Notes under the pieces: generated by a model
What the model saw: only the letters and a program-made list of their open reading frames with translations
Databases searched by the model: none
What the model was told of the DNA's origin: nothing
Source: Candidatus Pacearchaeota archaeon
GTDB lineage: Archaea > Nanobdellota > Nanobdellia > Pacearchaeales > GW2011-AR1
DNA length: 45,609 nt
NCBI GenBank assembly: GCA_040879785.1
Contig: JBBDJR010000004.1
Location: 80,778-126,386, forward strand
Direction: 5' to 3'
Shown here: piece after piece, positions 24,198 to 44,734 of the stretch
Layout of the letters: every line of letters begins with the position of its first letter
Position numbering within the stretch: the first letter of the stretch is position 1
Position numbers and translations under genes: made by a program

Positions 24198-24279
24198 CTT
24201 CTTACCCTTCCGACTCTTATGTTCTTTCTTTTAAAAGAAGAAATTGAGATGTGTATTAACTAAACAGTTACAATCAGAA
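24198..24279 (-). repeat. Degenerate copy of the 3' end of gene 29890..31344
   Basis: cttcttacccttccgactc...tctttctt and tacaatcagaa match about 29893-29978; encodes a KKEHKSRKGKK-like remnant. Confidence 0.6.
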
Positions 24280-24435
24280 AAACTTAAATAGTATCATATT
24301 CTCTTAGAAATATTAAAATGTAATGCCCACAATCAAGAATTTAAATCTCTAGAGGGATTAAAAATTCAAATATTTTCAGGTTATGTTATCTTATAAAGGG
24401 ATTAAAACAACAGGATTTAAAGGATATATAATAAT

Positions 24436-25194
24436 ATGAAAAAGGATAAATTAATTTTTGAGGAAATAAGAAATGAAGCTAAAAAGAATAATTCTATAGT
24501 TTGTGTTATGGTAAGAGGATCCTACGTAGAGGAAGGAGGATTAGATAAAAGTAGCAGTGATATCGATTTCTCAGTAATCATAAGGGGAGATGCCAGAGTA
24601 GAAGAGATTATTAATTTTAAAAAGAAATTTAATAAGATAACAAAGAAGTATGGGATACGTATCTCCTCCACTGTTGTAGGGATTGACCAGATAAAGAGGG
24701 ATTTAAAAAGAGGGATACATCTTCACGGAGCAATATCTTCTTCATTTGTATTTCAATTAGCAAGATCCAAAATAATATATGGCGAAGATATGAAAAAAGT
24801 CTTTAGTTCTTTTAAACACTATGATCCTTACACCCCTTATTTTAATGCTGTTAGATTTATAGATAAATTATTTAAAGATTATTTTAAAAAAGAGAGAAGA
24901 AAAAAAGGAATAAACTACTCATTCATTCTTGCTAGAGAATGTGGAGTAACAAAAGGAGTTACAACTTCTAAAAAAAAGATTCTTATAGATATTTTTAAAA
25001 AGCAAATAAGCGAGGAGCAGGGAAAAAATTTAGAGTCTATAATGAAAATGAGGGTAAAACTAAATCTTACAAAAAAAGACCTTCAGATTATATATACTTT
25101 CCTAAAATTTTGTAGAGATTATTTAGGAGAATTTTTGGGTAAGAGTATTCTTAAGGATATTAAAGAGGTAAATTCCTCGAACAAAAATGAATAA
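24436..25194 (+). CDS. Pol-beta superfamily nucleotidyltransferase with helical C-terminal domain
   Basis: VRGSY...SSDIDF (GS...DxD) motif. Confidence 0.8.
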   Translation: MKKDKLIFEEIRNEAKKNNSIVCVMVRGSYVEEGGLDKSSSDIDFSVIIRGDARVEEIINFKKKFNKITKKYGIRISSTVVGIDQIKRDLKRGIHLHGAISSSFVFQLARSKIIYGEDMKKVFSSFKHYDPYTPYFNAVRFIDKLFKDYFKKERRKKGINYSFILARECGVTKGVTTSKKKILIDIFKKQISEEQGKNLESIMKMRVKLNLTKKDLQIIYTFLKFCRDYLGEFLGKSILKDIKEVNSSNKNE

Positions 25195-25798
25195 TAATCC
25201 AAAAATAATCTTAATTGGAGGTCCTCCTGTGGTTGGAAAAACTAGCTTAGCTCATGAGTTATCAAAAAAGACAGGAATAAAGAGGGTTATAGATGTTGAC
25301 GTATTAAGAGATGTGTTAAGAAAGGAAAAGTTTTCAAGAGAAGAGCCATATATTTATCATTATTCAACAACTGCCTGGAGAATAAAAGGGAAATATACTC
25401 AAAAGAATCTGATTGATGCCTATATTAATTATTGTCAGGACTTGAGAAAAGCTATAGAATCTGTGATAGAAAGTTCATATAAGTTTAAGATAGATACAAT
25501 AATTGAGGGAGTACATTTGTTGCCTGAATTTTTTGAGGAATATCTTCATAAGGAGAATTTTAAGTTTTTTATATTATATTTAGGTAAAAAAGATTATATA
25601 AAGAATATACAAAGAAGAAAAGAGGAGAACCATAACGTCAATGTTAAATATTTACTCGAAAATGTTGATAAGGCAGTTCTGATCGGAGAATATTTAATGA
25701 GGCAATCAAAAAAAAGAGGGATTCCTTTAATCCATAATGCTTCAATCAAAAAATCCTGCAATAAAATAATTAAATTTATGAAAATTAAGAATGAGTAA
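25187..25798 (+). CDS. P-loop kinase, 2-phosphoglycerate-kinase-like
   Basis: GGPPVVGKTS, DVLRDVLR, YSTTAW, IIEGVHLLP. Confidence 0.85.
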   Translation: MNNNPKIILIGGPPVVGKTSLAHELSKKTGIKRVIDVDVLRDVLRKEKFSREEPYIYHYSTTAWRIKGKYTQKNLIDAYINYCQDLRKAIESVIESSYKFKIDTIIEGVHLLPEFFEEYLHKENFKFFILYLGKKDYIKNIQRRKEENHNVNVKYLLENVDKAVLIGEYLMRQSKKRGIPLIHNASIKKSCNKIIKFMKIKNE

Positions 25799-26426
25799 TG
25801 TAATTGGGATTGAAGGAATAGACAATAGTGGAAAAACCAGTACAATAGACTTTTTAATCAAGAAAATTGAGAAAGAAGGTTTTTGTGTGAGTACTGCTCC
25901 GAAAAGGGTGGGATTAGAAGAGAGGTTTCCGAGTTCTTTGGAAGAGAGAAAGATATGGTATAGAAAAGGTAATCCAAATGAAATAATTGAGACAAATCTT
26001 TCCAGTGCATTAAAAAGAAACAAAAAAGTTAAGAGTATGGAGGATGACATAGTCTTTGAGAGTAGAGGATATACTACAATACTTTCATCTATGATTGCTA
26101 TGGCTATGCATAGGTATCAAATAAATTATTGGGACGGGAAAATGATTGTCGATGAGATTAATAAAAAGATAAATTATTCTCCCCTGGAATCTCAAACTTA
26201 TTGCCTAAGTTTTGGGAGAGATTTTGACAATGCATTTGATGAAATCAAAAAAAGAGATATTAAAGGAGAATTAAATCAGGGATTCAAAGATTACCTCAAA
26301 AATTTTAATTATGCTTTTGAGAGATTTTCAAAAGAACAAAATAATCTACTTAAACTTAGTGCTTATTCCTCAATTGAACAAAATGCGGAGATTATAATGG
26401 GGGCTCTCTTAAAAAATGAAAACTAA
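25791..26426 (+). CDS. Thymidylate-kinase-like P-loop kinase
   Basis: IGIEGIDNSGKTS; VFESRG in place of the usual DR motif. Confidence 0.75.
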   Translation: MSNVIGIEGIDNSGKTSTIDFLIKKIEKEGFCVSTAPKRVGLEERFPSSLEERKIWYRKGNPNEIIETNLSSALKRNKKVKSMEDDIVFESRGYTTILSSMIAMAMHRYQINYWDGKMIVDEINKKINYSPLESQTYCLSFGRDFDNAFDEIKKRDIKGELNQGFKDYLKNFNYAFERFSKEQNNLLKLSAYSSIEQNAEIIMGALLKNEN

Positions 26427-26850
26427 ATACATGAAGTCCGCTGGAGGAGTTGTTTTTTATATTATAGGTGGTAAAATAAGGTATTTATTATTAAGGCATA
26501 AAAAAACAGGATCTCACTGGGGTTTTCCTAAGGGGAGAGTAGAAGTGAACGAAACTGAAAAACAAACTGCTCTAAGGGAAATTAGGGAGGAAACAGGGAT
26601 AAATAATCTAAAAGCATTAAATTCTTTTAGAGAAATAGAGAGATATTCTTTTTTCAAAAATAATATAAAGATTAAGAAAAAGGTAATTTATTTTCTGGTA
26701 GAAGTTGATTCTTTAAATGTAACCCTCTCCGAAGAACATCTTGAATCTTGCTGGGAGGAATTTTCTGAAGCAATTGAGAAGTTGAAAGATAAAGAAACAA
26801 AAGAAGTGTTAATTAAAGCAAATGAAGAGTTAAGATGGAAGATAAAATAA
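26416..26850 (+). CDS. Nudix hydrolase (Ap4A hydrolase-like)
   Basis: SAGGVVF, HWGFPKGRVE..ETEKQTALREIREETG Nudix box, LSEEH. Confidence 0.92.
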   Translation: MKTKYMKSAGGVVFYIIGGKIRYLLLRHKKTGSHWGFPKGRVEVNETEKQTALREIREETGINNLKALNSFREIERYSFFKNNIKIKKKVIYFLVEVDSLNVTLSEEHLESCWEEFSEAIEKLKDKETKEVLIKANEELRWKIK

Positions 26851-27572
26851 TGATTATCTCTTTTCCAAAATGTGGGAGAACATGGTTCACAATGATTTTA
26901 GGAAGAGCTTTACAAAATTTTTACAAATTCTCAGAAAGATTCATTATTTGTACAGAAGATTTGTCTCAAAGAATAGATGAAATTCCCAATATAAAGATTA
27001 TACATGAAGGTAGTCCTCATTTAAAATCACCTCTTCAAATACAGAAATATTTTGATAAGAATCAAAGTAATTATAGAAACGTAAAAGCGATAATCTTGAG
27101 GAGAGATATTAGAGATGTATTTGTGTCTTATTTTCTTCATATGAAAAAAAGGAAGAAAGGAAGAGAAAGATATAAAGGAGATATCTCAAAATTTATACGG
27201 AGGAAGAAAGGAAGTGCAAGATCTTTTATAAAATATTATAATTACTTAGAAAGAAACAGGAGAATTTTTGGAGACGTCTTATTCTTAGATTATGAAGATC
27301 TTCTGGACAATGGCTTCAAAGAAGTGAAAAAAGCGTTTAAATTTATGGGGTTGTCTTTTATCCCAGATAGGATTATAAAAGAAGCAATAAGTTATTGTTC
27401 TTTTAAAAACATGAAGAATATGGAAAAACAAAATAGATTTAATGTTAAAAGATTAAGGCCCGGAAATATAAAAGATCCAGATTCTTATAAAGTGAGAAAA
27501 GGAATGAAAGGAGATTATATTAATTACTTAAATAAAAAAGATATAGATTACCTGGAAAGCAATTATGTCTAA
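26835..27572 (+). CDS. PAPS-dependent sulfotransferase family protein
   Basis: 5'-PSB loop SFPKCGRTW, 3'-PB RDIRDVFVSY, YEDL, SFKNMK, VRKG..GD. Confidence 0.9.
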   Translation: MEDKIMIISFPKCGRTWFTMILGRALQNFYKFSERFIICTEDLSQRIDEIPNIKIIHEGSPHLKSPLQIQKYFDKNQSNYRNVKAIILRRDIRDVFVSYFLHMKKRKKGRERYKGDISKFIRRKKGSARSFIKYYNYLERNRRIFGDVLFLDYEDLLDNGFKEVKKAFKFMGLSFIPDRIIKEAISYCSFKNMKNMEKQNRFNVKRLRPGNIKDPDSYKVRKGMKGDYINYLNKKDIDYLESNYV

Positions 27573-28179
27573 TAACAATGACATGAATAACCCTTATATA
27601 ACCCCTCAAAATATTGCTAAAAAGGTTATCCCTATTGTTAAATATATCAATGATTTTAAGCCTCACTATACAATTTGTTGTGATAGAAGTGCCAGAATAA
27701 TAGGATATTCTGTTTTTAAATTATATGGTAAAATGTATGGTTCTTTTCCTACTTTTGATTCCACCATGAGGTTTAGAAAGATAAGCAAGAAAGATAGTGA
27801 AGAATCTCTAAAAGATTACCTAAGACCGACTATAGAAGAAATAGCGATGATTTCTAAGAGGCCAAGAGTGTTGATAATTGATGATTGGATTAGGACAGGG
27901 AGAACCCATGAGAATGTTAGACAAATGTTTAAAGAAATAGGGAAAAATTCTATAGACCTAAGATATGCCACTCTTTTGGCTAAGCCAGGAGAAAAAAAGA
28001 TAGACATTTATTGCGAGGAATGTGATGAAAGCCATTTCGTAAAAACTAGCAGATTTCGTAATAATCCCTTAATCCTAGGAGTTGATTATAAAGGGTTTGA
28101 GGCAATACCAATAAGAAGTGAGGAAATGAGAAGTTATAGGAATAAAATCAATCAATCCATAGACAGGCTATTTCCATAA
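27565..28179 (+). CDS. Type I phosphoribosyltransferase-like protein
   Basis: PRPP-binding motif VLIIDDWIRTGRT. Confidence 0.8.
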   Translation: MSNNNDMNNPYITPQNIAKKVIPIVKYINDFKPHYTICCDRSARIIGYSVFKLYGKMYGSFPTFDSTMRFRKISKKDSEESLKDYLRPTIEEIAMISKRPRVLIIDDWIRTGRTHENVRQMFKEIGKNSIDLRYATLLAKPGEKKIDIYCEECDESHFVKTSRFRNNPLILGVDYKGFEAIPIRSEEMRSYRNKINQSIDRLFP

Positions 28180-28180
28180 T

Positions 28181-28657
28181 TTATTTTACTAGATTTATTA
28201 CTTCTTCAGGAGTATTCGCGATGAGGATGTTATCTCCTCCAACTTCTTTTAAAAAATCTTTTGACTTTTGGTTATCGTTTAATAAGATAATTTTCCTTCC
28301 CGCCTTGATTCCCAAAGCTATTTCTGAGAGAGTTCCAGGACCCAATCCGCAAGCAATTATTACATCACTTGATAAAACATTAATATTGTTTCTTGCACTT
28401 CCCATTCCGGTGATAATTGGGATGTCAACATATTTTGAGAGGCCATCGTTATTTTTTGAAGAGGATATCCCTACAGTCATTCCTTTATTTGATTTCGCTC
28501 CCTTGTTTACAGCTTCCATAACACCTATATTCTTCCCTCCTGTAAGTAAGACCCAATCATTTTCAGCTATCAATTTTCCCAGTTTTTCCGCATTAACCAA
28601 GTCTTCTTTAGTTGCTTTTTTTCCGGGACCCATAACTCCAACAATTTTCTTTCTCAT
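28181..28657 (-). CDS. LOG/SLOG family nucleotide-binding protein
   Basis: VGVMGPG, LTGG..GVMEAV..GA, TGMGSARN and GTLSEI motifs. Confidence 0.9.
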   Translation of the reverse strand: MRKKIVGVMGPGKKATKEDLVNAEKLGKLIAENDWVLLTGGKNIGVMEAVNKGAKSNKGMTVGISSSKNNDGLSKYVDIPIITGMGSARNNINVLSSDVIIACGLGPGTLSEIALGIKAGRKIILLNDNQKSKDFLKEVGGDNILIANTPEEVINLVK

Positions 28658-28744
28658 ATGAAATTAAATAAGAAGAGATTTATAATACTTTTGTAGACTC
28701 TTTATATGAAACTAAAATATAACCAGAAAACCTAATTTTATAAT

Positions 28745-28870
28745 TTACTTCTTACTCTTCCGACTCCCGTGCTCTTTCTTCTTCCCAGTTTTCTTCATAT
28801 TCAAAATCATATACACTGCTACAATCAGAATTGCTAAGATAAAGATATATGCATTGAAGAAAGGAGAGAT
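28745..28870 (-). pseudogene. Orphan 3' end (PFF + TM + basic tail) of gene 29890..31344
   Basis: Translates to ISPFFNAYIFILAILIVAVYMILNMKKTGKKKEHGSRKSKK*, versus IALPFFNVYSFLIAILLIVAVYMILNMKKTGKKKEHGSRKKGKK* in the intact gene; an in-frame stop lies just upstream and no start codon precedes the PFF motif. Confidence 0.85.
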
Positions 28871-28937
28871 TCTAGGATAGTCTTAGTTAACCCTACAAAA
28901 GAGAAAGATTTATATATATGTAGGGATAACTAATAAA

Positions 28938-29876
28938 ATGCATTTCAAAACAAAATCAATAAAGGGAAGGAAATATAAGTATGCTGCAAAATCAATAAGG
29001 CTTCCAAATAAAAAAATTCTTTCTATTGAAAAGATATACAAAGATGAGAGTAAAGAGGAATTGGAAGGATATTTTGATAAAAAAGAAAAAGATGAATACC
29101 TAAAATATATGTTAAAGAATTTCAAAACTGACCACATATTTGACGAAATTCAGATGAAAAAAATAGAGGAAATTAGGGTGAATTACAAGAAAATTCTAAA
29201 AAAACTAAGTAGGGCTTCATTAAAGGATTTATTGGACAGATTTACTGCTAATTTTACTTATGAGAATAATGCTCTTGAAGGAAACTCTCTCACTCTAAAA
29301 GATGTAGCGATTGTAATGTTTGAAAACGCTTCAATAAAAGGGAAGGATTTAAGAGAAATTTATGAAACAAGGAATTCAAGAGAAGTTGTTGAAATGATAA
29401 TTAAGAATAAGTTTAGTATATCTCAAGAGGACATAATTAAAATACACAAGATTTTAATGAAAGATATGGATGTTGATACAGGATATAAAAAATTTCCAAA
29501 CCAGATAGTTGGAAAAAAAGTGAAAACAACTCCTCCCGAGAAAGTTCAGGAAGAAATGGAGAAATTAGTTAATTGGTATAATTCAAATAAAAATAGAATC
29601 CATCCTTTAAGAATCGTCGCCATTTTCCATGGGAAATTCGAGAAAATCCACCCTTTTGAGGATGGTAACGGAAGAGTCGGAAGATTTTTGATTAATGTGA
29701 TCCTGATAGAAAACAAATATCTTCCAATGATTATAAGAAAATCACAAAGATTGGCATATTTGACTACCCTGGAAAAATTTGATGATGATCACGAAGATAA
29801 TTTAATAAGATTTGTTTTGGAGAAATTTAAAGAGACGTATAGAAAATTTTTTGAAGTTTATGTTAATTATTTATGA
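28938..29876 (+). CDS. Fic family protein
   Basis: Canonical HPFEDGNGRVGR motif and NNALEGNSL inhibitory-type motif. Confidence 0.93.
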   Translation: MHFKTKSIKGRKYKYAAKSIRLPNKKILSIEKIYKDESKEELEGYFDKKEKDEYLKYMLKNFKTDHIFDEIQMKKIEEIRVNYKKILKKLSRASLKDLLDRFTANFTYENNALEGNSLTLKDVAIVMFENASIKGKDLREIYETRNSREVVEMIIKNKFSISQEDIIKIHKILMKDMDVDTGYKKFPNQIVGKKVKTTPPEKVQEEMEKLVNWYNSNKNRIHPLRIVAIFHGKFEKIHPFEDGNGRVGRFLINVILIENKYLPMIIRKSQRLAYLTTLEKFDDDHEDNLIRFVLEKFKETYRKFFEVYVNYL

Positions 29877-29889
29877 TAATTTATTTTCC

Positions 29890-31344
29890 CTACTTCTTAC
29901 CCTTCTTCCGACTCCCGTGCTCTTTCTTCTTCCCCGTTTTCTTCATATTCAAAATCATGTAAACTGCTACAATCAGAAGTATGGCTATTAAGAAGCTGTA
30001 AACATTAAAGAACGGCAGAGCTATTTGCGCAGGGCATAGTGCAACCCTCGAGTCGCTTTGACATGTTTCCATCTGTTTTTCTGAATCAAGATAGCACAAT
30101 CCGTCATCAAGAACATAATTATCAAGACAACCATCTTCGCCTGGTTCCTCACCAATATTCCCGTCATGCCATTCCCATTCGGCCGTCCAGTTGAAAGTTA
30201 TAAATTCGTCGGTTTCACAGCTTCCGGTTACATCTTCACGTGTATATGTACATGTTCCACCGTCAGTTCCGTCTCCGTCAGTGTTCCACTTTGCATCACA
30301 CTCATTCTCTCCTGAATCCCAATAACACTCACAGTTTCTTTCCTCGTCGCAAAATCCATCCCCCATGTTATATCCTTCCCCCGATTCAACAGTGTGTTTT
30401 GCTGTAATACATAGGTCTGCTTCACATCTGTCTTTATTATAATCCCAGCATAAGTTAATTTCTTCCGCCTCACACCATTCCGGCTTACCCTCAGTCACAA
30501 GAAGCGAGTTGCTGCTATCTTCAAACTCGTTATCATTCCCCACGACCGTCGCAGTAAAAGTATACTTGTCATCGTGGACCGGCTCCGCCGTCCAGGTTCC
30601 TGTCGCGTTTCCGCTATCGTCAAAATTCACATTCTCCGGGTTTGTACATCCGTCAATATCAGAACATGAAGTTCCGCCCCGGAAGACTTCGATTGAGATT
30701 TGTGCTCCCCCAGGAGCATCACTGCAAGCAGGGGTTCCTTCAACAATAAACCCCGCATTACTCCCTTCAGAGGCCGAAATGCCATCCCAACTTGCAGAAG
30801 TTAGGTCGCAATCTGCAGGATCAAAAACAGGAGTAGCACAAATCTTTGATTCATAATTATCTTCTTCTGGTTTTTCGGAGTGCGCATTCGAAAAACTCTT
30901 ATCTTCGTTTGTAGACAAGTAAATAATCTCAATTTTTGGAATATCTTCTTCCTCTGTAGAATTACCACATTCTTTTGTTGCATCAATTGATTCTACTTCT
31001 TTAAAACCACTATAACAGGCATCAGCATCATAATATGAGGAAAGTAAGTCAGGCACTTCGGCATGAGCATTAGTTGATGATGAAATTCCTAAGAACTTTT
31101 CATTTCCATCACACGATGTACTTCCACCCCCAAAATCACAGCATAAAACTTTCTTACCTGGAAAATCAGGCTGGTTTGCCAAGGCAACATGCGCGTTCGT
31201 AAATTCTGAGAGTCTGAGAACAATATTATTATCTCCATCACAGTTGTTTGAATTTACATATGTACAAGTCTGCGCAGAAACGCTCCCAACACTTACGACT
31301 AATAGAAACAGCCCAAGCAAAAATAGTATTCCTTTCAACCTCAT
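29890..31344 (-). CDS. Cys-rich acidic surface protein with C-terminal LPFF-TM-basic anchor
   Basis: Signal peptide, three NAH-containing repeats, Ig-like middle region, Cys-rich stalk, sorting-signal-like C-terminus. Confidence 0.85.
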   Translation of the reverse strand: MRLKGILFLLGLFLLVVSVGSVSAQTCTYVNSNNCDGDNNIVLRLSEFTNAHVALANQPDFPGKKVLCCDFGGGSTSCDGNEKFLGISSSTNAHAEVPDLLSSYYDADACYSGFKEVESIDATKECGNSTEEEDIPKIEIIYLSTNEDKSFSNAHSEKPEEDNYESKICATPVFDPADCDLTSASWDGISASEGSNAGFIVEGTPACSDAPGGAQISIEVFRGGTSCSDIDGCTNPENVNFDDSGNATGTWTAEPVHDDKYTFTATVVGNDNEFEDSSNSLLVTEGKPEWCEAEEINLCWDYNKDRCEADLCITAKHTVESGEGYNMGDGFCDEERNCECYWDSGENECDAKWNTDGDGTDGGTCTYTREDVTGSCETDEFITFNWTAEWEWHDGNIGEEPGEDGCLDNYVLDDGLCYLDSEKQMETCQSDSRVALCPAQIALPFFNVYSFLIAILLIVAVYMILNMKKTGKKKEHGSRKKGKK

Positions 31345-31369: not shown

Positions 31370-31419
31370 TTTTATAAATATTGCTCTAATGTAGTTGTGT
31401 TATTTTTTGATTGTTAGAG
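31370..31419. repeat. Junction repeat R1, copy 1 (50 bp, contains a TATA box)
   Basis: ttttataaatattgctctaatgtagttgtgtt[a/g]ttttttgattgttagag; 49/50 identical to 35969-36018. Confidence 0.9.
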
Positions 31420-31480
31420 ATTAAGAATGTTTAAATTCAATTACAACAAAATTTAAATAGCTTGAAAACTAAGAAAAGCC

Positions 31481-31630
31481 ATGGAAACCCTTGAGACAAC
31501 TTTAGAGAAAGTTGAGTTAAAGACTGAAGAAGAAAAAACCTTACCTATGGAAAGGTCTCTTTACGAAGGACTTCAAAAAATATCGGATGAAGTCTATAGT
31601 GGACCAACGAGTATTAAATATTGGATGTAA
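31481..31630 (+). CDS. Putative RiPP precursor peptide (49 aa)
   Basis: Not in the ORF track. METLETTLEKVELKTEEEKTLPMERSLYEGLQKISDEVYSGPTSIKYWM*; a TTTAAATA box lies about 25 bp upstream and it is the first gene before the ChaN-like and ThiF genes. Confidence 0.7.
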   Translation: METLETTLEKVELKTEEEKTLPMERSLYEGLQKISDEVYSGPTSIKYWM

Positions 31631-31649
31631 ATCTTCCTTTGAGTAAGAA

Positions 31650-35334: not shown

Positions 35335-35358
35335 AAAGGGAGTAACATGTAACAAGGC

Positions 35359-36939: not shown

Positions 36940-36963
36940 AATTTTGGAAGAATAAACAGGCTT

Positions 36964-37677
36964 TTATTCTTTTCTCTTTCCTACATTTATTGTATAAACA
37001 GGTATTTCACCTTCAGTGAGATCCAATATTTGAATTAATGCATCATCTACAAATCCGCTAACAGGACAAGCCCCAATTCCATTTTCTGCAGCTGATAAGA
37101 CAATATTTTGCCCCATGTGCCCTGCTTCAAGGTATGAGAAAGGAAGGGCCTTATGTCTATATTTAACTTCTGAGCGAGAGATAACTGATGTTAATGCAAG
37201 GGTTGCCGCAGGATTAATGATGTTTGTTCCCATTATCTCTCCTTGCCTATTCTCCAAGTCTTTCTCCAACAATGTTTCGAGCGAACAATTATCTACATTA
37301 AAATGATATGCTCCTTTGTTTAGCCCCTCTATATTATATCCAATCATGTAGATCTCAATAGGAAATCGTGCACCTGCAGAAGGGTAAGTTCTTCTTTCAG
37401 GATCTCGTGAATAATCTAATATGCTACAAGAATTTAGTAGTCTAGATATTTCTTCTAAACTCATAGGTTGATCTGAAAACTCTCGAATAGACTCTCTTGA
37501 TTGTAGAATTTTCTGAAGATAACCATCTCCTACTTTTGGAAGAGGATTTTGAGAAAGTCTAGGATACGATTTTTTGAAAATATGGACAAACTCTACAGGC
37601 ATCTCGCTATCACCAATATTCCACTCTATATCTTCTAATTTTAATTTCTCATAAAAATTTCTTGTTTCTTCTAACAT
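36964..37677 (-). CDS. SagB/McbC-type FMN-dependent azoline dehydrogenase
   Basis: RESIREF, RTYPSAGARFPIEIY, catalytic KY (SEVKY), LEAGHMGQN, GFVDD. Confidence 0.92.
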   Translation of the reverse strand: MLEETRNFYEKLKLEDIEWNIGDSEMPVEFVHIFKKSYPRLSQNPLPKVGDGYLQKILQSRESIREFSDQPMSLEEISRLLNSCSILDYSRDPERRTYPSAGARFPIEIYMIGYNIEGLNKGAYHFNVDNCSLETLLEKDLENRQGEIMGTNIINPAATLALTSVISRSEVKYRHKALPFSYLEAGHMGQNIVLSAAENGIGACPVSGFVDDALIQILDLTEGEIPVYTINVGKRKE

Positions 37678-37678
37678 T

Positions 37679-38911
37679 TTAAGTTAAGGGATGTGGTTTA
37701 AGTGATTTATCTTCTTTTACTTCACCATAATGTATGCTATATAATGCTTTTGCCCTTTCATCCAAATATAAAGGATGTAATTCAGGGATTATTATCTTTT
37801 TAGTTTCAAACCCTTCCTTTTTTAATTCGGGAAGAGTAATATCTACTTCAAAAATGTTAAATTTTCTTTCTCCTAACTTTGATAAAATTTCCTGTGGATT
37901 GTTCACCCTAGATTTAAGAGAAGAATAAGAAATCTCTTTCTCTGATTCTAACCAGAAACTCAAATCGTTTATTCTTTCAAGTGGCTGCCAATATACAAAT
38001 CTGTCTTCTAGTGAGAAAATTTCATCTTCGTTCGGAGCTCCTTCAGAAAAACTACCCTCCTTGAATAAGCGAGCATGTCTTCTGCATTGTATTGCCTCTA
38101 AAATGGATTTATAGGCGGAATCTTCATAAGTAAAATCTGAAGCAGAACCGACATCTACTGCAGGACCAAATCCAGTTTTATCAATAACAGCACTTATTAC
38201 TGTGGGAACATCTAAATCAGAAGTTGCATCAAAAGCAAACACCTCTAGATTATATCTTTTTAGATATTCTTCTAATTGTCCAATTTTTCCATTGAAATCG
38301 ATGATTCTTGGCAATTCCGTTCTTGAAATATAAGGATAGATACAAGAGTCTCTCTCAATAACCTCCAGCAAACCAGAATTAAGTGCTCTATCTGTTCCTT
38401 CCTTTCCAAACGCAGTTCCTGTACTTATACTTTCTTTCCTAATTCCAAATTCCCCTTTAAAGAGATTAGATAAATAAACAAGCTGGGCAGGGATAAACTT
38501 AACCCCTCCATTGATTAGATCTCTAGATTGAACCCATAAATAATCGGATTCTCTTGCATCCTTTTTAAATTTTTCTCTATCTCCTATTTGTTCATTGGAA
38601 TAACAACAAAATATCCCCGGATCAACCATTTCCTCCTTATCATCAAATTTTTGGACAAATAATCTATCTTTACGAGGGTTATCTATACATAACCTTTCTA
38701 GGTATTCTGCTACGGATTTTACTCTTGATAATGTTTCATGGGGATGATATCCCTGCCCATGGTCTCCATCGGTTGAATATCTCTCTTGTGCAGTTTCATT
38801 AGGTAAAGTTAAGAAATTTGGTATTTTTGGTTCATCTGTTATATATGGTACACTCTCTTCTGGAGAAGACAGCCCTATATTTCTAATCCTTGTTAATATT
38901 TCTTCTAGCAT
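37679..38911 (-). CDS. YcaO cyclodehydratase
   Basis: AEYLER, IPAQLVY, STGTA and GLLEVIERD ATP-binding motifs; Pro-rich C-terminus PELHPL...KPHPLT. Confidence 0.93.
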   Translation of the reverse strand: MLEEILTRIRNIGLSSPEESVPYITDEPKIPNFLTLPNETAQERYSTDGDHGQGYHPHETLSRVKSVAEYLERLCIDNPRKDRLFVQKFDDKEEMVDPGIFCCYSNEQIGDREKFKKDARESDYLWVQSRDLINGGVKFIPAQLVYLSNLFKGEFGIRKESISTGTAFGKEGTDRALNSGLLEVIERDSCIYPYISRTELPRIIDFNGKIGQLEEYLKRYNLEVFAFDATSDLDVPTVISAVIDKTGFGPAVDVGSASDFTYEDSAYKSILEAIQCRRHARLFKEGSFSEGAPNEDEIFSLEDRFVYWQPLERINDLSFWLESEKEISYSSLKSRVNNPQEILSKLGERKFNIFEVDITLPELKKEGFETKKIIIPELHPLYLDERAKALYSIHYGEVKEDKSLKPHPLT

Positions 38912-38943
38912 ATTGAGTTTCCTATCACCCCAATATTGTATAA

Positions 38944-39156
38944 TTATCTCTCTAAGGTTTTCTCTACTTTTTCTACAAGGCTATTCCCTCTAGCCATACT
39001 TGCTGAGGACCTACTTGAACATTTAGAGCCACACTTAGAGTTTCCTACAGCATAGGCAGTATTCTCATTTGGGGAATATCCCATCTGATATGCAGCATCC
39101 TCTATAATTGGGCTCCTTTCAAGCAATTCTTTCCTATTTTGGTATTTGTTTTCCAT
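38944..39156 (-). CDS. Putative azole-RiPP precursor peptide (70 aa)
   Basis: Directly upstream of YcaO; central NSKCGSKCSSRSSAS Cys/Ser-rich segment between charged flanks. Confidence 0.78.
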   Translation of the reverse strand: MENKYQNRKELLERSPIIEDAAYQMGYSPNENTAYAVGNSKCGSKCSSRSSASMARGNSLVEKVEKTLER

Positions 39157-39221: not shown

Positions 39222-41141
39222 CTAAAAATCGCTCTGCCAATAAAATCCGTTTTGATGTGATTCTTTCCCATCAGGACCGAATTCAAGTCCGAGGATATTG
39301 TCTACTTCATCGAAACGAGGATATCTCAATCCATCAAATCTTATAAACTGAGACCATCTTCCGTCATCATATCCGAGTTCGTAATATAACATTTTTCCCG
39401 ATTTTTCGTCCGCGGGACCTGCTGTTGATCTGTTTCCTTTAGTAGACCCAATTGTCTCGTCCGCTAGGTTCTCAGGGTGTGGACTCCCTACAAACATATG
39501 CCAGAATTCGTGCGTTGTCGTCCAATCTCCCGTGTTTGGAGATAGATAAATCACTCCGCCCCTGACAAGGGTTCCAGATTTACTCTGTACTGCTAGTCCT
39601 GCCCTGCCCCCCACACCAAAATCAGACCTAGGAGAAACAACATACACTCCGGGATTTGGAGAGATATTATACTCTGGCTCAAATGAACTACAATTAACGG
39701 TATAATGTTCGTCCTCGGCATCTCCAATTAATATCTGATTTTCTTCTATAGGGGAAGGAGTTCTAAGTTTGTTAACGTGCTCTGGACTAAGGATAATCTC
39801 CTCAATGTTTTCCTGCTTTTCTCTGTCAATTGTTGCACTATCATCACAAGGGTCTTTATCAAGAATCACAAATTTTTCATCTCCGCTAAGCTCTGGTTTT
39901 AATTTATTGAAATATCTATTATCGATATCTGCTTTATTTGGATTAAGCCCCTCCCATTCTTTTACATGTGCATTATATTCTTCAGGATTATCTCCGTATG
40001 GCTTAAACGGCACACTAACAAATTCAAATTCAGGATTATACTCTGGACTTTCAGGACTGACTAATTTTGAAGGAATCGTCTCGGTTCTTACATAGCCAGT
40101 TCTGTTGTCTGGAGTTCCGTGAGCAGCCTGGACAATAATCATCTCAAGGTCAGATAAATCTTCTTTTTCAATTATCTTTATTTTAAATTCACCATTATCA
40201 TTAGTGATATAGTTTTCCTCTGAATCAGCATCCTTTATTTTTAGCTGATTCCATTCAGGATCGTAAATCCTCATAGTTGATTTTTCTCCTTCGAGAGTTT
40301 CATTACTTATTACAGCCCCTTCAAGATATCCATATACCTTCTTCTCAAGAACAGTATTTATTTGGTCTGGTGAAGATTCAAAAGTGAATGTGGTGGTCCA
40401 GGGTGTATAATGCTCTGCCGTTATTGAAACATACACTTCATCTTCCGAGTTTGTTGTTCCCACCTGCCTTTTATCAATCCTATTATTGTTTACAAAGTTT
40501 GCCGAACTTCCTGTGGAATGGCTCACGCTAATATTATTTTCTCTCCCACCTCCAATACTAGTCATTTTCTCAGTAAGCCTACTTTTAGGATCTGAAGTAT
40601 TATGCCCACTAAAGAAATAAACTCCAGGAACAGTCACACCTCCAATAGAGAAACTATTATCTCCTTGATTCAAATCTTTTGTTTCTTTATACAATTCCTG
40701 TCCTAGGATATTGTGTATTGTTATTATGTGAGGACCTCTTTCCGGAGTGGTATAAACTACATTTGTCCTAGGATTAAATGGATTTGGATAGTTACTACTT
40801 AAAGAATATCTGTTAGGAACCTCTCCAGGATTTTCTGCACTCGTAACTGTTTTTTTTAAATCCCATTCTCCTGCATAATTTGTGGTTAGAGTTGTATCTA
40901 AATCAGCATAACGCACATTTACATTAGCCCCTTCAATTCCATCCTCGGAGCCGTTTGTTACATATCCTCTTAAATCAATTTCTCTATCTTCCTGAGTCAC
41001 ATATTCTTGAGTTCCCTGAGCTTTTGAAGAGTATGCTGTTCCCTGAATCTGTGGAGATGACATATTAAAGACTAATCCAAGAGTAGCAGCCGTCCCAAAA
41101 ACTTTGGTCTTATGTAGTAGACTTTCAAGCGTTTTATTCAT
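39222..41141 (-). CDS. Secreted acidic protein with internal T9SS-CTD-like Ig domain and HExxH motif (paralog 2)
   Basis: YSLSSNYPNPFNPRT...HNILGQ...GVYFF; GYVRTETIPS and THEFWHMFV are shared with paralog 1. Confidence 0.85.
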   Translation of the reverse strand: MNKTLESLLHKTKVFGTAATLGLVFNMSSPQIQGTAYSSKAQGTQEYVTQEDREIDLRGYVTNGSEDGIEGANVNVRYADLDTTLTTNYAGEWDLKKTVTSAENPGEVPNRYSLSSNYPNPFNPRTNVVYTTPERGPHIITIHNILGQELYKETKDLNQGDNSFSIGGVTVPGVYFFSGHNTSDPKSRLTEKMTSIGGGRENNISVSHSTGSSANFVNNNRIDKRQVGTTNSEDEVYVSITAEHYTPWTTTFTFESSPDQINTVLEKKVYGYLEGAVISNETLEGEKSTMRIYDPEWNQLKIKDADSEENYITNDNGEFKIKIIEKEDLSDLEMIIVQAAHGTPDNRTGYVRTETIPSKLVSPESPEYNPEFEFVSVPFKPYGDNPEEYNAHVKEWEGLNPNKADIDNRYFNKLKPELSGDEKFVILDKDPCDDSATIDREKQENIEEIILSPEHVNKLRTPSPIEENQILIGDAEDEHYTVNCSSFEPEYNISPNPGVYVVSPRSDFGVGGRAGLAVQSKSGTLVRGGVIYLSPNTGDWTTTHEFWHMFVGSPHPENLADETIGSTKGNRSTAGPADEKSGKMLYYELGYDDGRWSQFIRFDGLRYPRFDEVDNILGLEFGPDGKESHQNGFYWQSDF

Positions 41142-41167
41142 TTTATAGCCTATTAGACATTATTTTT

Positions 41168-41222
41168 AATACACAGAAATATAATAAGCTTACTATTTAA
41201 ATCTTTAGATTGTTGTCACTTA
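41168..41222. repeat. Junction repeat R2, copy 2
   Basis: 54/55 identical to 35280-35334. Confidence 0.9.
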
Positions 41223-41296
41223 GAAGTGAGTTAGAATGAGACTACCTCAATTAGGCTTTAGTTATTTTTATAAATAAGAAAGCTATATATTTTTTA

Positions 41297-41977
41297 ATGT
41301 TTAAAAGACCTAAAAGAAGAATGCCCAAATTTGGCGGAAATTTTTCCCCTGAGAAGCGTCCAACAAACATGCCCTTCATAATTCTTGGAGGGACTTTTGC
41401 TGTTGCATTGATTGGTATTGTTTTGTTATTCTTTGTCTCTGAGTGGGATTTTTCTGGAAGCGAATCTAATGAGGAGGTTCCTTCTGAAACGAGAGAATCC
41501 GCAGAATTAGCGGTTTCATGCAATGACTGGGATTGTTTAATAGAGAACTCCAAAAACTGCAATCTTGCAAAAGCGACCTTAAACTCAACAATTAATTTTT
41601 TTGGGGCAATAATAACCACTACTTCTTCTTATGAGATAAAAGAGTCGGAAATAGGGGTGTGTGAACTTTATACAATAAATAAGTACCAAACTATAGGTTA
41701 TGATGAAGAGATAGTTGAGCAAAAGTTGGAAGAAGGAATGACAGATGAAGAAATTGAACAAGAAATAAAGGACGTAAATGAAGAAGTATCTGAATTTGAG
41801 AAGACGGGTTCTGTATGCAGGTTTGAGCCGACTTCGGATTTAACTGAATATCTGACATTATTAGATGAAGGAGTTTTCGATTTTAGTATATCAGGAGGAC
41901 TAACGCCCGAAGGGTTTGAAGGAGAAACAACTGCCGGAGGCATTACATTAGATTGTGATACTCTAACTCTAGATTAG
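41297..41977 (+). CDS. Membrane-anchored acidic extracellular protein
   Basis: Basic N-terminus, TM helix, CNDWDCLIENSKNC motif; a TTTATAAA box lies upstream. Confidence 0.8.
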   Translation: MFKRPKRRMPKFGGNFSPEKRPTNMPFIILGGTFAVALIGIVLLFFVSEWDFSGSESNEEVPSETRESAELAVSCNDWDCLIENSKNCNLAKATLNSTINFFGAIITTTSSYEIKESEIGVCELYTINKYQTIGYDEEIVEQKLEEGMTDEEIEQEIKDVNEEVSEFEKTGSVCRFEPTSDLTEYLTLLDEGVFDFSISGGLTPEGFEGETTAGGITLDCDTLTLD

Positions 41978-42049: not shown

Positions 42050-42601
42050 CTACCTACAGCAAACCATGCCTTCTTCCGGAGGATTATCTGAAGCAGGTAT
42101 TTCTTTCCTTGCTTTTAGTCCAAACTGCTCACAGGTTCCGTCTGCCTGAGGTTCTTCCCATATTCCGCCCAAACCTTCTACACAGGTCTGATCTACTTCC
42201 TCCTCTTCTTCACAATCAATCGCAGGGCAGGTTTCTACACCATATTGTGCATAATCAGGATTTGTCGCAAGCTCGTTGCATGTTGTTCTTAACTCCTCAT
42301 CAGCATTTACCCTAAAATCACAAAATCCTGTTTTTTGCTCACTCTCACAGAGGAATGCACACTGTTCCGAAATCGGATCCGGCTGCTCCTCTCCCCTATC
42401 AGAAACCAGAATATAAACAACCGAAGCTGCTATGAGAATAAAAATAATCGTTATTGCTATTGCAAGTGTTTTTGTATTCATTTTGTTTCCCGTATGTCCG
42501 TGACGAGCGCCGTGTCTTCCGCGATGGACCGTATTGTTTTTAGAATGATTCGCGCGCCCGTGATTTGATTTATGTCCGCCATGTTTCTTAGGATATTTCA
42601 T
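42050..42601 (-). CDS. Membrane protein with His/basic N-terminal tail and Cys-rich ectodomain (paralog 2)
   Basis: First 69 aa identical to 35359..35922; ectodomain diverged with conserved Cys spacing. Confidence 0.85.
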   Translation of the reverse strand: MKYPKKHGGHKSNHGRANHSKNNTVHRGRHGARHGHTGNKMNTKTLAIAITIIFILIAASVVYILVSDRGEEQPDPISEQCAFLCESEQKTGFCDFRVNADEELRTTCNELATNPDYAQYGVETCPAIDCEEEEEVDQTCVEGLGGIWEEPQADGTCEQFGLKARKEIPASDNPPEEGMVCCR

Positions 42602-42656
42602 TTGTTTAACTTAGCCCTCTTTTACACACCTTCTATAACAAAACTGCTTTTATAAA
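42394..42656. repeat. Repeat R3, copy 2
   Basis: Matches 35715-35977 at an offset of 6679 bp. Confidence 0.92.
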
Positions 42657-42694
42657 CATTTTTATGTCCGAATCTATTATAGGTTAGATGAGAT

Positions 42695-42856
42695 ATGAGC
42701 GTTGACAAACATCAAATTAAATTATGGAGTGTTCCAGAAGTAGAAGCTATGCTAACTGCTAGAGAAATATCTCATAATGTAAGAAGGGGCTATTCAGGAA
42801 AGAGAGAAGAGAATGGAGTTCCTATCTTTGTTTTGGAAGGGCTTAAAAAAGAATAA
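42695..42856 (+). CDS. Small ORF or gene remnant (53 aa)
   Basis: Not in the ORF track. MSVDKHQIKLWSVPEVEAMLTAREISHNVRRGYSGKREENGVPIFVLEGLKKE*; ends 14 bp before the Nudix gene. Confidence 0.4.
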   Translation: MSVDKHQIKLWSVPEVEAMLTAREISHNVRRGYSGKREENGVPIFVLEGLKKE

Positions 42857-42870
42857 ATATTTATAATAAA

Positions 42871-43371
42871 ATGAAAGATAAGGTAAATTGGCAAGGGAAA
42901 ACTTATGAAATGGAATGGTTAGATGAATTTGATGATCTTTTTTTAGATAAATTACAACAGGTTTATGGATTTCTTTTTGATGACAAGGGGAATATCTGTA
43001 TCGTAAGGCCTACTGAAAAAAGAGGATGGAGGCTTCCAGGTGGAGGACCAGAAAAACAAGATAAAGATTGGAGAGAAACAATTATCAGGGAAGCTATTGA
43101 GGAAGCAGACATTGAAATAGAAAAAGATTCTCTAAAAATTGTTGGATTAATTAAAAATACTCCAATTAGTAAAAATTGCGAAAGAGAAGAAGGTTATGCC
43201 TTAAGAGTTGTTGGAAATATAAGTTCAATTAATAGTCAAACAGAAGATATTGCTGAGGGTCTGATTAATGAAAGGAAATTTGTCAAACCAGAAGAATTTT
43301 TGGACTATTGCCAGTGGGGAAAATTCGGAGAATTTCAAATAAAAAAAGCATTGGGGGTTTATAGGAAATGA
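42871..43371 (+). CDS. Nudix hydrolase
   Basis: WRLPGGGPE...RETIIREAIEEAD variant Nudix box. Confidence 0.88.
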   Translation: MKDKVNWQGKTYEMEWLDEFDDLFLDKLQQVYGFLFDDKGNICIVRPTEKRGWRLPGGGPEKQDKDWRETIIREAIEEADIEIEKDSLKIVGLIKNTPISKNCEREEGYALRVVGNISSINSQTEDIAEGLINERKFVKPEEFLDYCQWGKFGEFQIKKALGVYRK

Positions 43372-44105
43372 AAAAACAATTTTATGACTTGTGGAGAAAT
43401 AAATCTGAATTAGAAAATGCAGGAATACAAAATCTAAAACTTTCAAAAAAATTAATTTTAGAAAATATTCCTTCAAATGAAATTGTTTCTATTTATGTTA
43501 AAGGAAGTTTTGTAAGAAGAGAGATGGTATCTAAAAGTGATATTGATATTATAACTGTTTTAAAGACTAAGAAGCATTTTGGAAAGATAAAAAAATTAGA
43601 TAAGTGGGGAGAAAGATCAAACTTAAAACCTTATCCTCAATTTTTAGGTTATTCTTTATGGGAATTAAAAACAGGAAAAAGGATTAAAAATAATATTGGA
43701 GGCGCTTCCCCTTCCAGAATGGTTAAGCACTTAAAGGAATATAAATTAATTTATGGAAGAGATTTAGTAAAAGAAAATCTTTTCACAAGAACCGATGAAG
43801 AAGATTTAGAAAAATTAGCCAATGTCTTTAGAAAAGAATTCATTCCACAATATGAAAGAGGTAATTTTTCTTTCGGAATGTTGATAAAACAAACATTTTG
43901 GTTAATAGAAAATGAACAAAAAGTAAAAGGAAAAAATCCACCTCATCAATGGAAGAAATTAAGGGATTCTATAAAAGATAGAAATCATATAATTTACGAT
44001 GCATGGAGATTAAGGGAAATTCCAAGTAAAGACAAAGCCATAAGAAAAGAGTATGTTAACAAATTAAAAAAATATATTAAAAAAAACCGTAGATTATTAG
44101 AATAA
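43368..44105 (+). CDS. Pol-beta superfamily nucleotidyltransferase
   Basis: IYVKGSFVRREMVSKSDIDI; ATGA overlap with the upstream Nudix gene. Confidence 0.82.
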   Translation: MKKQFYDLWRNKSELENAGIQNLKLSKKLILENIPSNEIVSIYVKGSFVRREMVSKSDIDIITVLKTKKHFGKIKKLDKWGERSNLKPYPQFLGYSLWELKTGKRIKNNIGGASPSRMVKHLKEYKLIYGRDLVKENLFTRTDEEDLEKLANVFRKEFIPQYERGNFSFGMLIKQTFWLIENEQKVKGKNPPHQWKKLRDSIKDRNHIIYDAWRLREIPSKDKAIRKEYVNKLKKYIKKNRRLLE

Positions 44106-44106
44106 T

Positions 44107-44550
44107 ATGAAGAAAAAAATATTAACTTTTGTTGTGAATAGGGGAAAATTCTTAGCTTTGCATAGCGAGCCTCATCCCGACCACGGTAAGGGAGGATGGT
44201 TTGTAGTAACTGGAGGTGTTGAAGAGAATGAAACTCACGAAGAAGCTGTGGCAAGAGAGATATTAGAAGAGACGGGATTGGCTGTAGATGAAATAATTCC
44301 TTTAAACTGGGGTTCAATCTACAACTGGTGGGATGAATTATGTGAAGAATTAAATTTCATCTCATTTGTAAAATCTGGAGAAATGATTCTAAATGAAGAA
44401 CATTCAAAATTTGATTGGCTAGAAATTGATGAATTTATTGAGAGAATTAAATGGGATGATGATAAAGAATTATTAAAAACAATCTTAGAGAAAGCACTTA
44501 ACAAAGAAAAACACTTTCATAAGATGACCGTTAAAGATTATCGGAAATAA
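44107..44550 (+). CDS. Nudix hydrolase
   Basis: VTGGVEENETHEEAVAREILEETGL, LNEEH. Confidence 0.9.
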   Translation: MKKKILTFVVNRGKFLALHSEPHPDHGKGGWFVVTGGVEENETHEEAVAREILEETGLAVDEIIPLNWGSIYNWWDELCEELNFISFVKSGEMILNEEHSKFDWLEIDEFIERIKWDDDKELLKTILEKALNKEKHFHKMTVKDYRK

Positions 44551-44689
44551 AAAATTTCTAAAATTAATTAGAATAATTTAATTTGTGTAGCGTCTTCTTT
44601 TTAGAAAAAAAGAAACAAAAAAGCACGTGTCTCTTTGATACATAGCTCCAAGAGTAGTATCTTCCATCTGTGTAAATAACTCCCATCTT

Positions 44690-44734
44690 CTAAAACCCTC
44701 AATCACTTGAATTTGTTTGCCAATAAAATCCGCC
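44690..44734 (-). pseudogene. Orphan 3' end of a T9SS-like paralog
   Basis: 41/45 identical to 33266-33310; encodes GGFYWQTNSSD* versus GGFYWHTNSSD*. Confidence 0.8.

Follow-up and report, generated by a model that had tools for sequence, protein, structure and literature searches.

An accessory-gene island with orphaned gene ends inside a conserved surface-protein gene cluster of a Candidatus Pacearchaeota archaeon

A 45,609-nucleotide (nt) stretch of DNA (hereafter the window) from a Candidatus Pacearchaeota archaeon was analysed; it corresponds to positions 80,778-126,386 of contig JBBDJR010000004.1 (GCA_040879785.1), and its source is placed in the Genome Taxonomy Database (GTDB) lineage Archaea; Nanobdellota; Nanobdellia; Pacearchaeales; GW2011-AR1. 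Positions 24198-44734 of the window hold an island of accessory genes (cargo) that lies inside a conserved cluster of surface-protein genes and whose cargo was added at junctions between genes. At the 3' end of one of the cluster genes, g11, these additions go together with duplication of the last part of the gene (the tail), repeatedly and independently, and gene-less, orphaned copies of this tail are found in the window and at the corresponding loci of two related archaea. We propose, with moderate confidence, that this flexible island grew by homology-driven insertion, either of the Campbell type or by displacement, combined with gene conversion between promoter blocks.

Protein domains were annotated by a Pfam scan of 54 open reading frames (ORFs) of the window, and repeats were identified by a repeat search and by sensitive self-blastn of the whole window. 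For comparison with relatives, 45 homologs of g11 were used to build an alignment (A2), with which the GTDB species genomes were scanned; this yielded 76 loci (L001-L076), which do not include the source contig itself. As the g15/g21 family of the island is nearly an orphan family, with strong scores only for the two window copies and a 55% match on a 2.7-kb contig, it was dropped as a comparative handle and g11 was used instead. Named homologs of g11 belong to Candidatus Pacearchaeota and related DPANN archaea, and the assemblies of the relatives are all metagenome-assembled genomes (MAGs) or single-cell assemblies. The closest relative, L001, shares 45, 92 and 86% amino acid (aa) identity with the window in g11, the GTPase and FttA, respectively. 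Homologs at the loci were counted by tblastn of the 54 window proteins against the 76 loci, those of cargo proteins within 10 kb of g11. Orphan tails in the relatives were sought for g11 only, with a profile of the g11 C-terminus and then by a nucleotide self-search without a low-complexity filter.

Orphaned copies of the g11 tail

The related loci share a conserved and co-oriented gene order of g16-like gene, g11, PKD-protein gene, GTPase, OapB, OapC and CCA enzyme, in which homologs of the PKD protein, GTPase, OapB, OapC and CCA enzyme are found at 60, 54, 52, 49 and 47 of the 76 loci, respectively. The PKD homolog sits directly downstream of g11, while the g16-like gene is directly upstream of g11 at 13 of the 76 loci and is itself preceded by a g15-like gene at three (L003, L015 and L066). 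Among the 55 loci where the distance could be measured, the g11 stop and the PKD start are at most 340 bp apart in 45 and 605-4230 bp apart in 10. The genes in the ten enlarged gaps are varied and include those for a ChaN-like protein, an MvdD-type ATP-grasp enzyme and an 86-aa ORF (L005), radical SAM/SPASM and GNAT proteins (L061), an ArsP permease, a thioredoxin and an ArsR regulator (L022), a methyltransferase (L030) and other surface proteins. Consequently, accessory genes recur at the g11/PKD junction, of which the window is the most expanded version among these loci, with 6342 bp of accessory genes, split by two orphan tails, between the g11 stop and the PKD gene.

The cargo between the repeats had been predicted from the sequence to be accessory, and the counts agree: thirteen cargo proteins of the island, namely both nucleotidyltransferases (NTases), the kinase, the Tmk-like protein, the sulfotransferase, the phosphoribosyltransferase (PRTase) and the SLOG, Fic, ThiF, DUF2268, SagB-like, YcaO and Nudix2 proteins, have a homolog near g11 at none of the 76 loci. 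Cassettes are present or absent at one conserved locus, as is typical of additive flexible islands, with the relatives being different species and not strains.

The g11 protein ends in a CPAQIxLPFF motif, a membrane anchor and a basic tail. On the minus strand, g11 is followed in order by Fic, orphan tail 2, the SLOG gene and a six-gene operon, orphan tail 1, a phosphatase gene and the PKD gene. Both orphans, when read on this strand, encode the g11 membrane anchor and basic tail, and they share one orientation and are preserved to graded extents. The homology of orphan tail 2 to g11 spans the PFFN motif to the stop codon and nothing beyond. Orphan tail 1, which the original prediction had listed as a third tail copy, is degraded yet significant: its core (24192-24230; 42 nt, 81% identity) has an E value of 4e-5 against the whole window and its score is matched by none of 200 spacer shuffles, while its extension to approximately 24280 is by eye only. 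The orphans lie 35-88 nt upstream of the next genes on the same strand, which in the window are the SLOG and phosphatase genes.

With the profile of the g11 C-terminus, the window and L065 alone yielded gene-less copies. The g11 gene of L065 ends at position 843, two genes on the opposite strand occupy 863-1733 and a 122-nt orphan tail follows at 1821-1940; the first 50 nt of this orphan, which encode ECPAQIALPFFG, are near-identical to the intact tail and the remainder is diverged. The filter-free nucleotide search added L061, where a second copy of the final 77 nt of g11 (11346-11421), 89.6% identical, is present at 14664-14740, immediately upstream of the PKD start at 14771; the TATA box of the PKD gene abuts the stop codon of this orphan. 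Genes for a 246-aa protein, a radical SAM/SPASM protein and a GNAT protein lie between these tail copies, and a third copy, a 34-nt block of stop codon plus TATA box, is at 13871-13904. The L061 orphan occupies the position at which g11 ends in most relatives, i.e., the ancestral position of g11, and, like the orphans of the window, it is just upstream of the next gene on the same strand (the PKD gene).

In all of these events, homology stops at the stop codon (plus 0-5 nt), no gene body is left and the 5' end of the cargo faces the orphan, at a distance of 69-155 nt in the window and 87-91 nt in L065 and L061. The events differ in the length of the repeat (34, 77, 122 and ~123 nt), in the best-conserved part of the tail and in the 5' end of the orphan, which is at positions 10 and 2 of the tail hidden Markov model (HMM) or, in L061, at the last ~77 nt; these different 5' ends argue against a fixed attachment (att) core. 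Because the g11 protein of the window shares only 28-31% identity with those of L061 and L065 and the cargo differs, the three events are, as judged from their sequences, independent. The independent recurrence of the same layout supports a recurrent insertion process that duplicates the g11 tail.

Across the g11 family (alignment A2, L001-L076), the C-P-A-Q-I/V-x-L-P-F-F motif looks invariant, and a membrane helix and a Lys/Arg tail come after it. This C-terminal motif is matched by no Pfam model and may be an as yet undescribed archaeal signal for sorting or anchoring in Pacearchaeota-type DPANN archaea. In the region 863-2406 of L065, the insert between the tails encodes a 187-aa protein, which has no Pfam match at 1e-3 and in which a GS..D.D nucleotidyltransferase-like motif is recognized by eye, and, overlapping it, a protein of 116 aa. 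The L065 orphan tail is followed by a ParE-type toxin pair, and the cargo there resembles a toxin-antitoxin system.

Table 1. Genes, cargo slots, orphan tails and repeats discussed in the text (positions of the window)
Feature	Position	Strand	Description
PKD-domain surface protein	20875-23547	-	890 aa, Pfam PKD; core edge of the island
Histidine phosphatase	23619-24155	-	Pfam His_Phos_1; between orphan tail 1 and PKD gene
Orphan g11 tail 1	24192-24280	-	Remnant ..KKEHKSRKGKK..; 35 nt upstream of phosphatase start; most degraded copy
Cargo A	24436-28179	+	Six overlapping genes: NTase, P-loop kinase, Tmk-like, Nudix, sulfotransferase, PRTase (Pfam)
SLOG cluster-4 gene	28181-28657	-	Pfam LDcluster4, E = 1.9e-50; same strand as and directly downstream of orphan tail 2
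Orphan g11 tail 2	28746-28868	-	Reads PFFNAY..ILAILIVAVYMILNMKKTGKKKEHGSRKSKK-stop; no gene body; tail HMM E = 5.9e-11
Cargo B (Fic)	28938-29876	+	Single gene, Pfam Fic; converges on g11; 5' end abuts orphan tail 2
g11	29890-31344	-	Cys-rich surface protein, 484 aa; signal peptide, TNAH repeats; intact tail 29891-30020
Cargo slot "RiPP 1" (label uncertain)	31481-33228	+	49-aa ORF, 192-aa protein, ThiF/E1-like enzyme (Pfam ThiF)
g15	33275-35254	-	HExxH-bearing secreted protein, 659 aa; repeated tail 33266-33310
g16	35359-35922	-	Small membrane protein, 187 aa
Chimeric g16 promoter and 5' end	35706-36026	-	D1 common to g23, D6' common to g11
Cargo slot "RiPP 2"	36094-39156	-	70-aa ORF, YcaO, SagB-like nitroreductase, DUF2268 protease (Pfam); 0/76 loci
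g21	39222-41141	-	639 aa, HExxH; g15 paralog (43% aa)
g22	41297-41977	+	Membrane protein, 226 aa; one 30% homolog, in L067
g23	42050-42601	-	183 aa; g16 paralog
Cargo slot N	42695-44550	+	53-aa ORF, Nudix, NTase, Nudix (Pfam)
Orphan g15-type tail	44690-44734	-	GGFYWQTNSSD-stop (last 11 codons) plus 9 nt
IS200-type Y1 transposase gene	44936-45419	+	Split over two frames (44936-45166, 45135-45419)
Repeat D1/D1'	35706-35981 vs 42385-42660	-	276 nt, 99%; 5' end and promoter of g16 vs g23
Repeat D5/D5'	35280-35343 vs 41168-41231	-	64 nt, 95%; promoter blocks of g15 and g21; one mismatch in first 55 nt
Repeat D6/D6'	31370-31427 vs 35969-36026	-	58 nt, 93%; one mismatch in first 50 nt
g11 3'-end repeat	29891-30020 vs 28746-28868	-	130 nt, 84%; 75-nt core 96%
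g15 3'-end repeat	33266-33310 vs 44690-44734	-	45 nt, 91%, E = 3e-11
g15 and g21 bodies	33294-35343 vs 39235-41231		2.1 kb, 59% nt

Promoter blocks and duplicated units upstream of g11

Self-blastn returned six self-matches in the 45.6 kb, all of them at 28.7-44.7 kb and none in the core half at 1-24 kb. The repeats are of two kinds, promoter/5'-end blocks of surface-protein genes (56-276 nt, 93-100% identical) and orphaned 3' ends of two surface genes. All repeats named in the original prediction (R1, R2, R3, three g11 tails and two g15 tails) were recovered at their places by the repeat search and self-blastn, and their description as promoter blocks and gene tails of surface-protein genes is correct. 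That many of them coincide with boundaries of cargo is partly trivial, since promoters and gene ends define gene boundaries.

From its upstream end, the minus-strand array consists of the orphan g15-type tail, the Nudix/NTase cargo, g23, (g22), g21, the YcaO cluster, g16, g15, the ThiF trio and g11. Two copies of a unit of g16-like gene, g15-like gene and cargo can be recognized, and beyond them lies the tail of a third g15-like gene. The spacings of the repeats in the two units are 6679 and 5888, the left-hand unit being approximately 790 bp longer with extra sequence that includes g22.

As had been noted, the bodies of the paralogs next to the repeats are strongly diverged (Table 1). In g16 and g23, all of the first 207 coding nt are identical, after which (beyond codon 69) identity falls abruptly to ~60%; identity that ends so immediately is the pattern expected of a recombination or gene-conversion tract and not of selection on the protein. 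The identical run in D1, which is R3 of the original prediction, is approximately 263 nt long and comprises these 207 coding nt and the upstream sequence up to a single mismatch in the TATA box. The promoter of g16 is chimeric: its TATA box and distal part match the promoter of g11 (D6, in which the TATA box is 26-37 nt upstream of the ATG), its part proximal to the TATA box matches g23 (D1), and the switch point is the common TATA box. That recombination at the promoter/5' blocks has happened is evident from this chimera and from the sudden end of the 263-nt tract. The upstream region of g11 itself aligns with, and is orthologous to, that of L001 g11. Among the relatives, a promoter/5'-untranslated-region block is common to the g16-like gene and g11 in L038 (56 nt, 95%), and weaker promoter blocks are common to neighbouring surface genes in L018, L023 and L043.

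The first 69 residues common to g16 and g23 (35716-35922, 42395-42601) are rich in His, Arg, Gly and Asn and lead into a membrane helix. An internal Met at residue 41 of g16 and g23 may be the real start; tblastn matches to these proteins begin at about residues 63-77 in most relatives, thus missing the N-terminal part, and at residues 19-41 in some.

The labels given to the cargo in the original prediction hold by Pfam with one exception. The name "RiPP 1" (for ribosomally synthesized and post-translationally modified peptide) is uncertain, because the small ORF and the 192-aa gene of this slot adjoin g11 in L001 without ThiF: the 49-aa and 192-aa genes (31481-32228) are 73 and 78% identical to the genes adjacent to g11 in L001 (2874-3619), whereas g11 itself is only 45% identical. 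The 192-aa protein resembles, by eye only, the ChaN/Tiki-like protein that is encoded in the g11/PKD gap of L005 beside the ATP-grasp enzyme and 86-aa ORF. In cargo slot N, only the last Nudix is matched in relatives (L013, 61%). The first ORF of L001 was considered as a g15 homolog, which would have meant a cargo swap in the same slot, and was rejected as there is no significant similarity.

Proposed growth of the island and competing explanations

We propose that the ancestral order, all on one strand, was (g15-like gene), g16-like gene, g11, PKD-protein gene, GTPase, OapB, OapC and CCA enzyme, and that accessory DNA entered at the g11 3' end at least twice; the layout is observed, whereas the process is our reconstruction. 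Each entry would have kept an intact tail on g11 and displaced a gene-less copy of it downstream, where it now lies just before the next gene on the same strand. The grading of the orphans, in which the copy with the 96% core is by Fic and the decayed copy is farther away, suggests that the newest insert is nearest to g11 and the oldest orphan is the most decayed. The incoming DNA may itself have carried a tail copy that spans the CPAQIxLPFF motif to the stop codon, and this copy would have recombined with the resident tail through homologous recombination of the host. A single crossover of a circular molecule (Campbell-type) would duplicate the tail with no integrase involved, as would an unequal exchange between sister chromosomes.

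Homologous recombination between tails fits the lack of an integrase, the variability of the repeat ends and the presence of local patches of near-identity (an exact run of 31 nt in the window and 50 nt in L065), which look like crossover zones. That no integrase is present in the window had been stated before, and in the Pfam scan neither the 54 window ORFs nor the scanned inserted ORFs of L061 and L065 contained an integrase or recombinase domain. In the upstream units, where near-identical promoter/5' blocks are combined with diverged bodies and different cargo, recombination or gene conversion at the blocks, evident in part, would have contributed. The cargo comprises nucleotide-modifying enzymes, Fic, Nudix/NTase genes and two clusters for peptide modification, and has the look of conflict- or defence-type content from the same archaeal lineage.

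Several observations weigh against growth by homology-driven insertion. The layout of tail, cargo and orphan tail is rare, being found in the window and in two of the 69 relatives with a recognizable tail (L061 and L065), and nine of the ten relatives whose g11/PKD gap contains cargo are without an orphan tail; tail duplication is therefore not the usual route of entry. The filter-free search gave extra tail-like matches at 13 loci, of which three (L010, L061 and L065) were accepted by judgement, and in L010 the extra match belongs to two full-length, tandem g11 paralogs with a common 151-nt tail at 89% identity. The other ten loci, with weak, A-rich matches of at most 79% identity, were set aside. 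Synteny with L001 breaks right after the stop codon of the 192-aa gene, where the window has no repeat. In the assembled sequence of the window and the 76 loci, no cassette occurs in two contexts and no sign of excision or re-use is found. The G + C content at third codon positions (GC3) is 0.16-0.29 in the cargo and 0.29-0.37 in the core, a modest drop. Fic has more than 1200 homologs at 63-75% identity, the named ones being from Pacearchaeota or Nanoarchaeota, and as a lineage-typical conserved family it need not, on these matches, be foreign. Finally, an integrase may lie in the other 80 kb of the 126-kb contig, as the scan covered the 54 ORFs of the window. Exotic horizontal gene transfer had also been considered from composition; for Fic it is unsupported, given the modest GC3 shift and the lineage-typical family.

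The view that the repeats serve as recombination anchors is partly supported, by the chimeric g16 promoter, the 263-nt tract and the layout in L061 and L065, and finds no support in nine of the ten cargo-bearing gaps. Likewise, comparison with relatives shows the tail layout recurring at the same gene in L061 and L065, but the break relative to L001 falls at no repeat. The "integron-like" cassette exchange of the original prediction is not upheld, as there is no fixed site (the orphans have three different 5' positions) and no common promoter, and neither excision nor a shared cassette was found.

In a bolder extension, which we offer tentatively and regard as rather doubtful, the g11-type tail from CPAQIxLPFF to the stop codon would be a portable homology module, with which small accessory units travel, are captured at the resident tail by homologous recombination of the host, pile up as arrays of tail, cargo and tail and can loop out. 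If true, archaea would have an integrase-free equivalent of integron or displacement arrays, one that feeds defence and conflict genes into reduced symbiont genomes.

An alternative that we consider unlikely is that the repeats mark paralogy and not a mechanism of insertion. Old tandem paralogs (of g11 and of the g16/g15 pair) would have had their ends kept alike by gene conversion and their bodies later lost to deletion or unrelated cargo, while the tails persisted as carriers of the promoter of the next gene. The two intact g11 paralogs of L010, the tandem paralogs of L013, the resemblance of the two g16/g15 units, by their spacings, to a tandem duplication and the promoter blocks common to neighbouring surface genes in L038, L018, L023 and L043 are all in line with this, as is the placement of the orphans shortly before same-strand genes, which in L061 brings the TATA box of the PKD gene against the stop codon of the tail. 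However, the five orphans in three lineages are without any remnant of a gene body, the cargo starts 69-155 nt from the 5' end of the orphan and it is the 5' end of the cargo that faces the orphan every time. Moreover, the position of the L061 orphan coincides exactly with the end of the single-copy g11 in 45 of 55 relatives, which fits insertion into one gene better.

Integrative elements carry the 3' end of their target gene, and at tRNA-gene islands and with cis-mobilisable elements the target 3' end is duplicated as direct repeats around the insert, the target stays intact and inserts accrete in tandem. The cargo at the g11 3' end could be the remnants of such site-specific elements with a replacement tail, the integrase having been lost or being located elsewhere (cis-mobilisable). 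Each insert is indeed bounded by direct repeats of the target 3' end, with g11 intact and tandem accretion in which the newest insert is next to the gene, and the 50-nt near-identical core of L065, followed by divergence, is attL/attR-like. We nevertheless judge this origin very unlikely, for the scanned ORFs of the window and of the L061 and L065 inserts include no integrase, the inserts are tiny (one or two genes in 1.0 kb), and instead of a fixed core the repeats vary in length (34, 77, 122 and ~123 nt) and in 5' end, with a best-conserved patch that shifts within the tail. No tRNA gene that might have been an insertion target is present in the window.

An assembly artefact, in which a metagenome contig strings strain variants together at common repeats into an array that exists in no single cell, is extremely improbable: the contig is from an uncultured lineage with relatives known from MAGs or single-cell assemblies, its 263-nt identical tract exceeds a short read and its two units, with diverged bodies and identical ends, look like alleles, but most repeats are non-identical (84-96%) and one is heavily decayed, unlike the result of graph collapse, the g16 promoter chimera switches within a common TATA segment of 13-17 nt, shorter than the usual assembly k-mers, two direct repeat copies on one linear path allow one ordering only, the same layout is found in two other assemblies from other studies and the gene order to the left agrees with the 76 loci.

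Relation to known systems and other features of the window

For an island that grew by homology-driven insertion, the closest described process would be the sequential or C-terminal displacement at Rhs, contact-dependent inhibition (CDI) and type VI secretion system (T6SS) loci. The T6SS clusters of Vibrio are described as sequential displacement arrays formed by homologous and homology-facilitated illegitimate recombination, and are called integron-reminiscent by the authors, in the part of the report that treats them (PMC5361080). In these arrays, incoming material joins a conserved gene at its 3' part, and the former 3' end is displaced downstream and orphaned, in successive events that need no dedicated recombinase (PMC5361080). 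The window has an intact g11 and two orphans that start at or near the PFFN motif, and L061 and L065 have a comparable arrangement. Unlike in displacement arrays, the displaced piece is a membrane anchor with a basic tail and not a toxin domain, the cargo consists of unrelated enzymes (Fic, SLOG, nucleotide enzymes), mostly on the opposite strand and without pairing of toxin tip and immunity gene, the host is a DPANN archaeon and only three loci are involved.

Integrons share with the window an ordered series of small gene units parted by a repeated element, with the newest unit at the insertion point. In contrast to integrons, the window has no IntI among its ORFs, no attI/attC structure and no common Pc promoter; its units keep their own upstream regions (69-155 nt) and occupy both strands, mostly opposite to the surface genes, and its repeat is a coding gene end of variable extent. 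With regard to attC-type sites, the repeats, which are directly oriented, consist of coding 3' ends and promoter blocks, and an Rfam search of the window at the gathering score gave no match; no dedicated attC model was run.

Flexible islands of aquatic prokaryotes and the cell-wall island of Haloquadratum walsbyi also have a cluster of surface genes as the seat of variation between strains or species, with a mosaic of conserved and variable genes for which homologous recombination is invoked in the portions of those reports considered here (PMC4033161, PMC4535781). In replacement islands, however, whole clusters are swapped between conserved flanks, and no serial orphan gene ends are left behind. 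The VARTIG modules of Thermococcales are, according to the relevant part of their description, integrase-less and hypervariable surface modules for which recombination between strains is inferred (PMC8416519). Like g11, VARTIG is a surface protein of archaea that is secreted or anchored, carries a sorting-type signal at its C-terminus and has unique gene combinations downstream. It differs in being an Ig-domain family of another lineage that varies in its distal Ig domain, and that part of the description does not include orphan tails. Keyword searches of the literature found no description of orphan anchor tails that flank cargo in DPANN archaea, which is not proof of absence.

DPANN archaea have tiny genomes and few recognizable mobile elements, yet their surface and conflict genes are variable, and the route by which these are acquired is poorly understood. 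The locus provides a concrete and datable trace, serial orphan gene ends at one conserved junction in three lineages, and the trace points to ordinary homologous recombination at a short conserved coding segment. If general, such recombination would explain integrase-free gene flow in these lineages, and orphan tails would be a simple search key for recently acquired genes in archaeal MAGs. For comparisons between such genomes, the cluster of g16, g11, PKD-protein, GTPase, OapB and OapC genes offers a useful anchor.

The left half of the window carries archaeal housekeeping genes, including those for the exosome, proteasome, SBDS, RNase J, Mre11/Rad50, FttA, CCA enzyme and OapB/OapC. The conserved cluster (17434-31344), followed by TrmB, SPP and FttA on the other strand, is seen across MAGs labelled Pacearchaeota, Woesearchaeota and Nanoarchaeota, and it ties surface-protein genes to genes of origin-associated proteins.

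PADLOC detected no complete known defence system in the window; Fic alone was a strong match (PDC-S04/SoFic), whereas Nudix, PRTase, NTase and ThiF were weak. The best match of the window Fic in the protein collection is at 75% with no 100% entry, unlike g11 and g15, and the gene may be differently called, or uncalled, in the source annotation. The genes of cargo A have a GC3 of 0.24-0.28 and, apart from one weak Nudix match, homologs near g11 at none of the 76 loci. The histidine phosphatase has homologs near g11 at only three of the 76 loci (L009, L059 and L070; 61-65% aa), where they are on the opposite side of g11; this phosphatase, too, therefore shifts position around the cluster.

An IS200-type transposase gene (tnpA) starts approximately 200 nt past the end of the island. 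Its second ORF contains a Y1_Tnp domain (E = 1.9e-18), and hairpins are present on both sides, at 44780-44820 and 44857-44885 between the orphan g15-type tail and tnpA and at about 45421-45444 downstream; the window ends 190 nt beyond the gene. The left side of the IS200 element begins within approximately 45 nt of the orphan g15-type tail, and the element may have truncated that g15-type gene. A short G/C hairpin-like stretch (A-run, C-run, TGCGGG, T-run) lies at 45095-45150, where the frame of tnpA changes, and could be a small insertion that broke tnpA.

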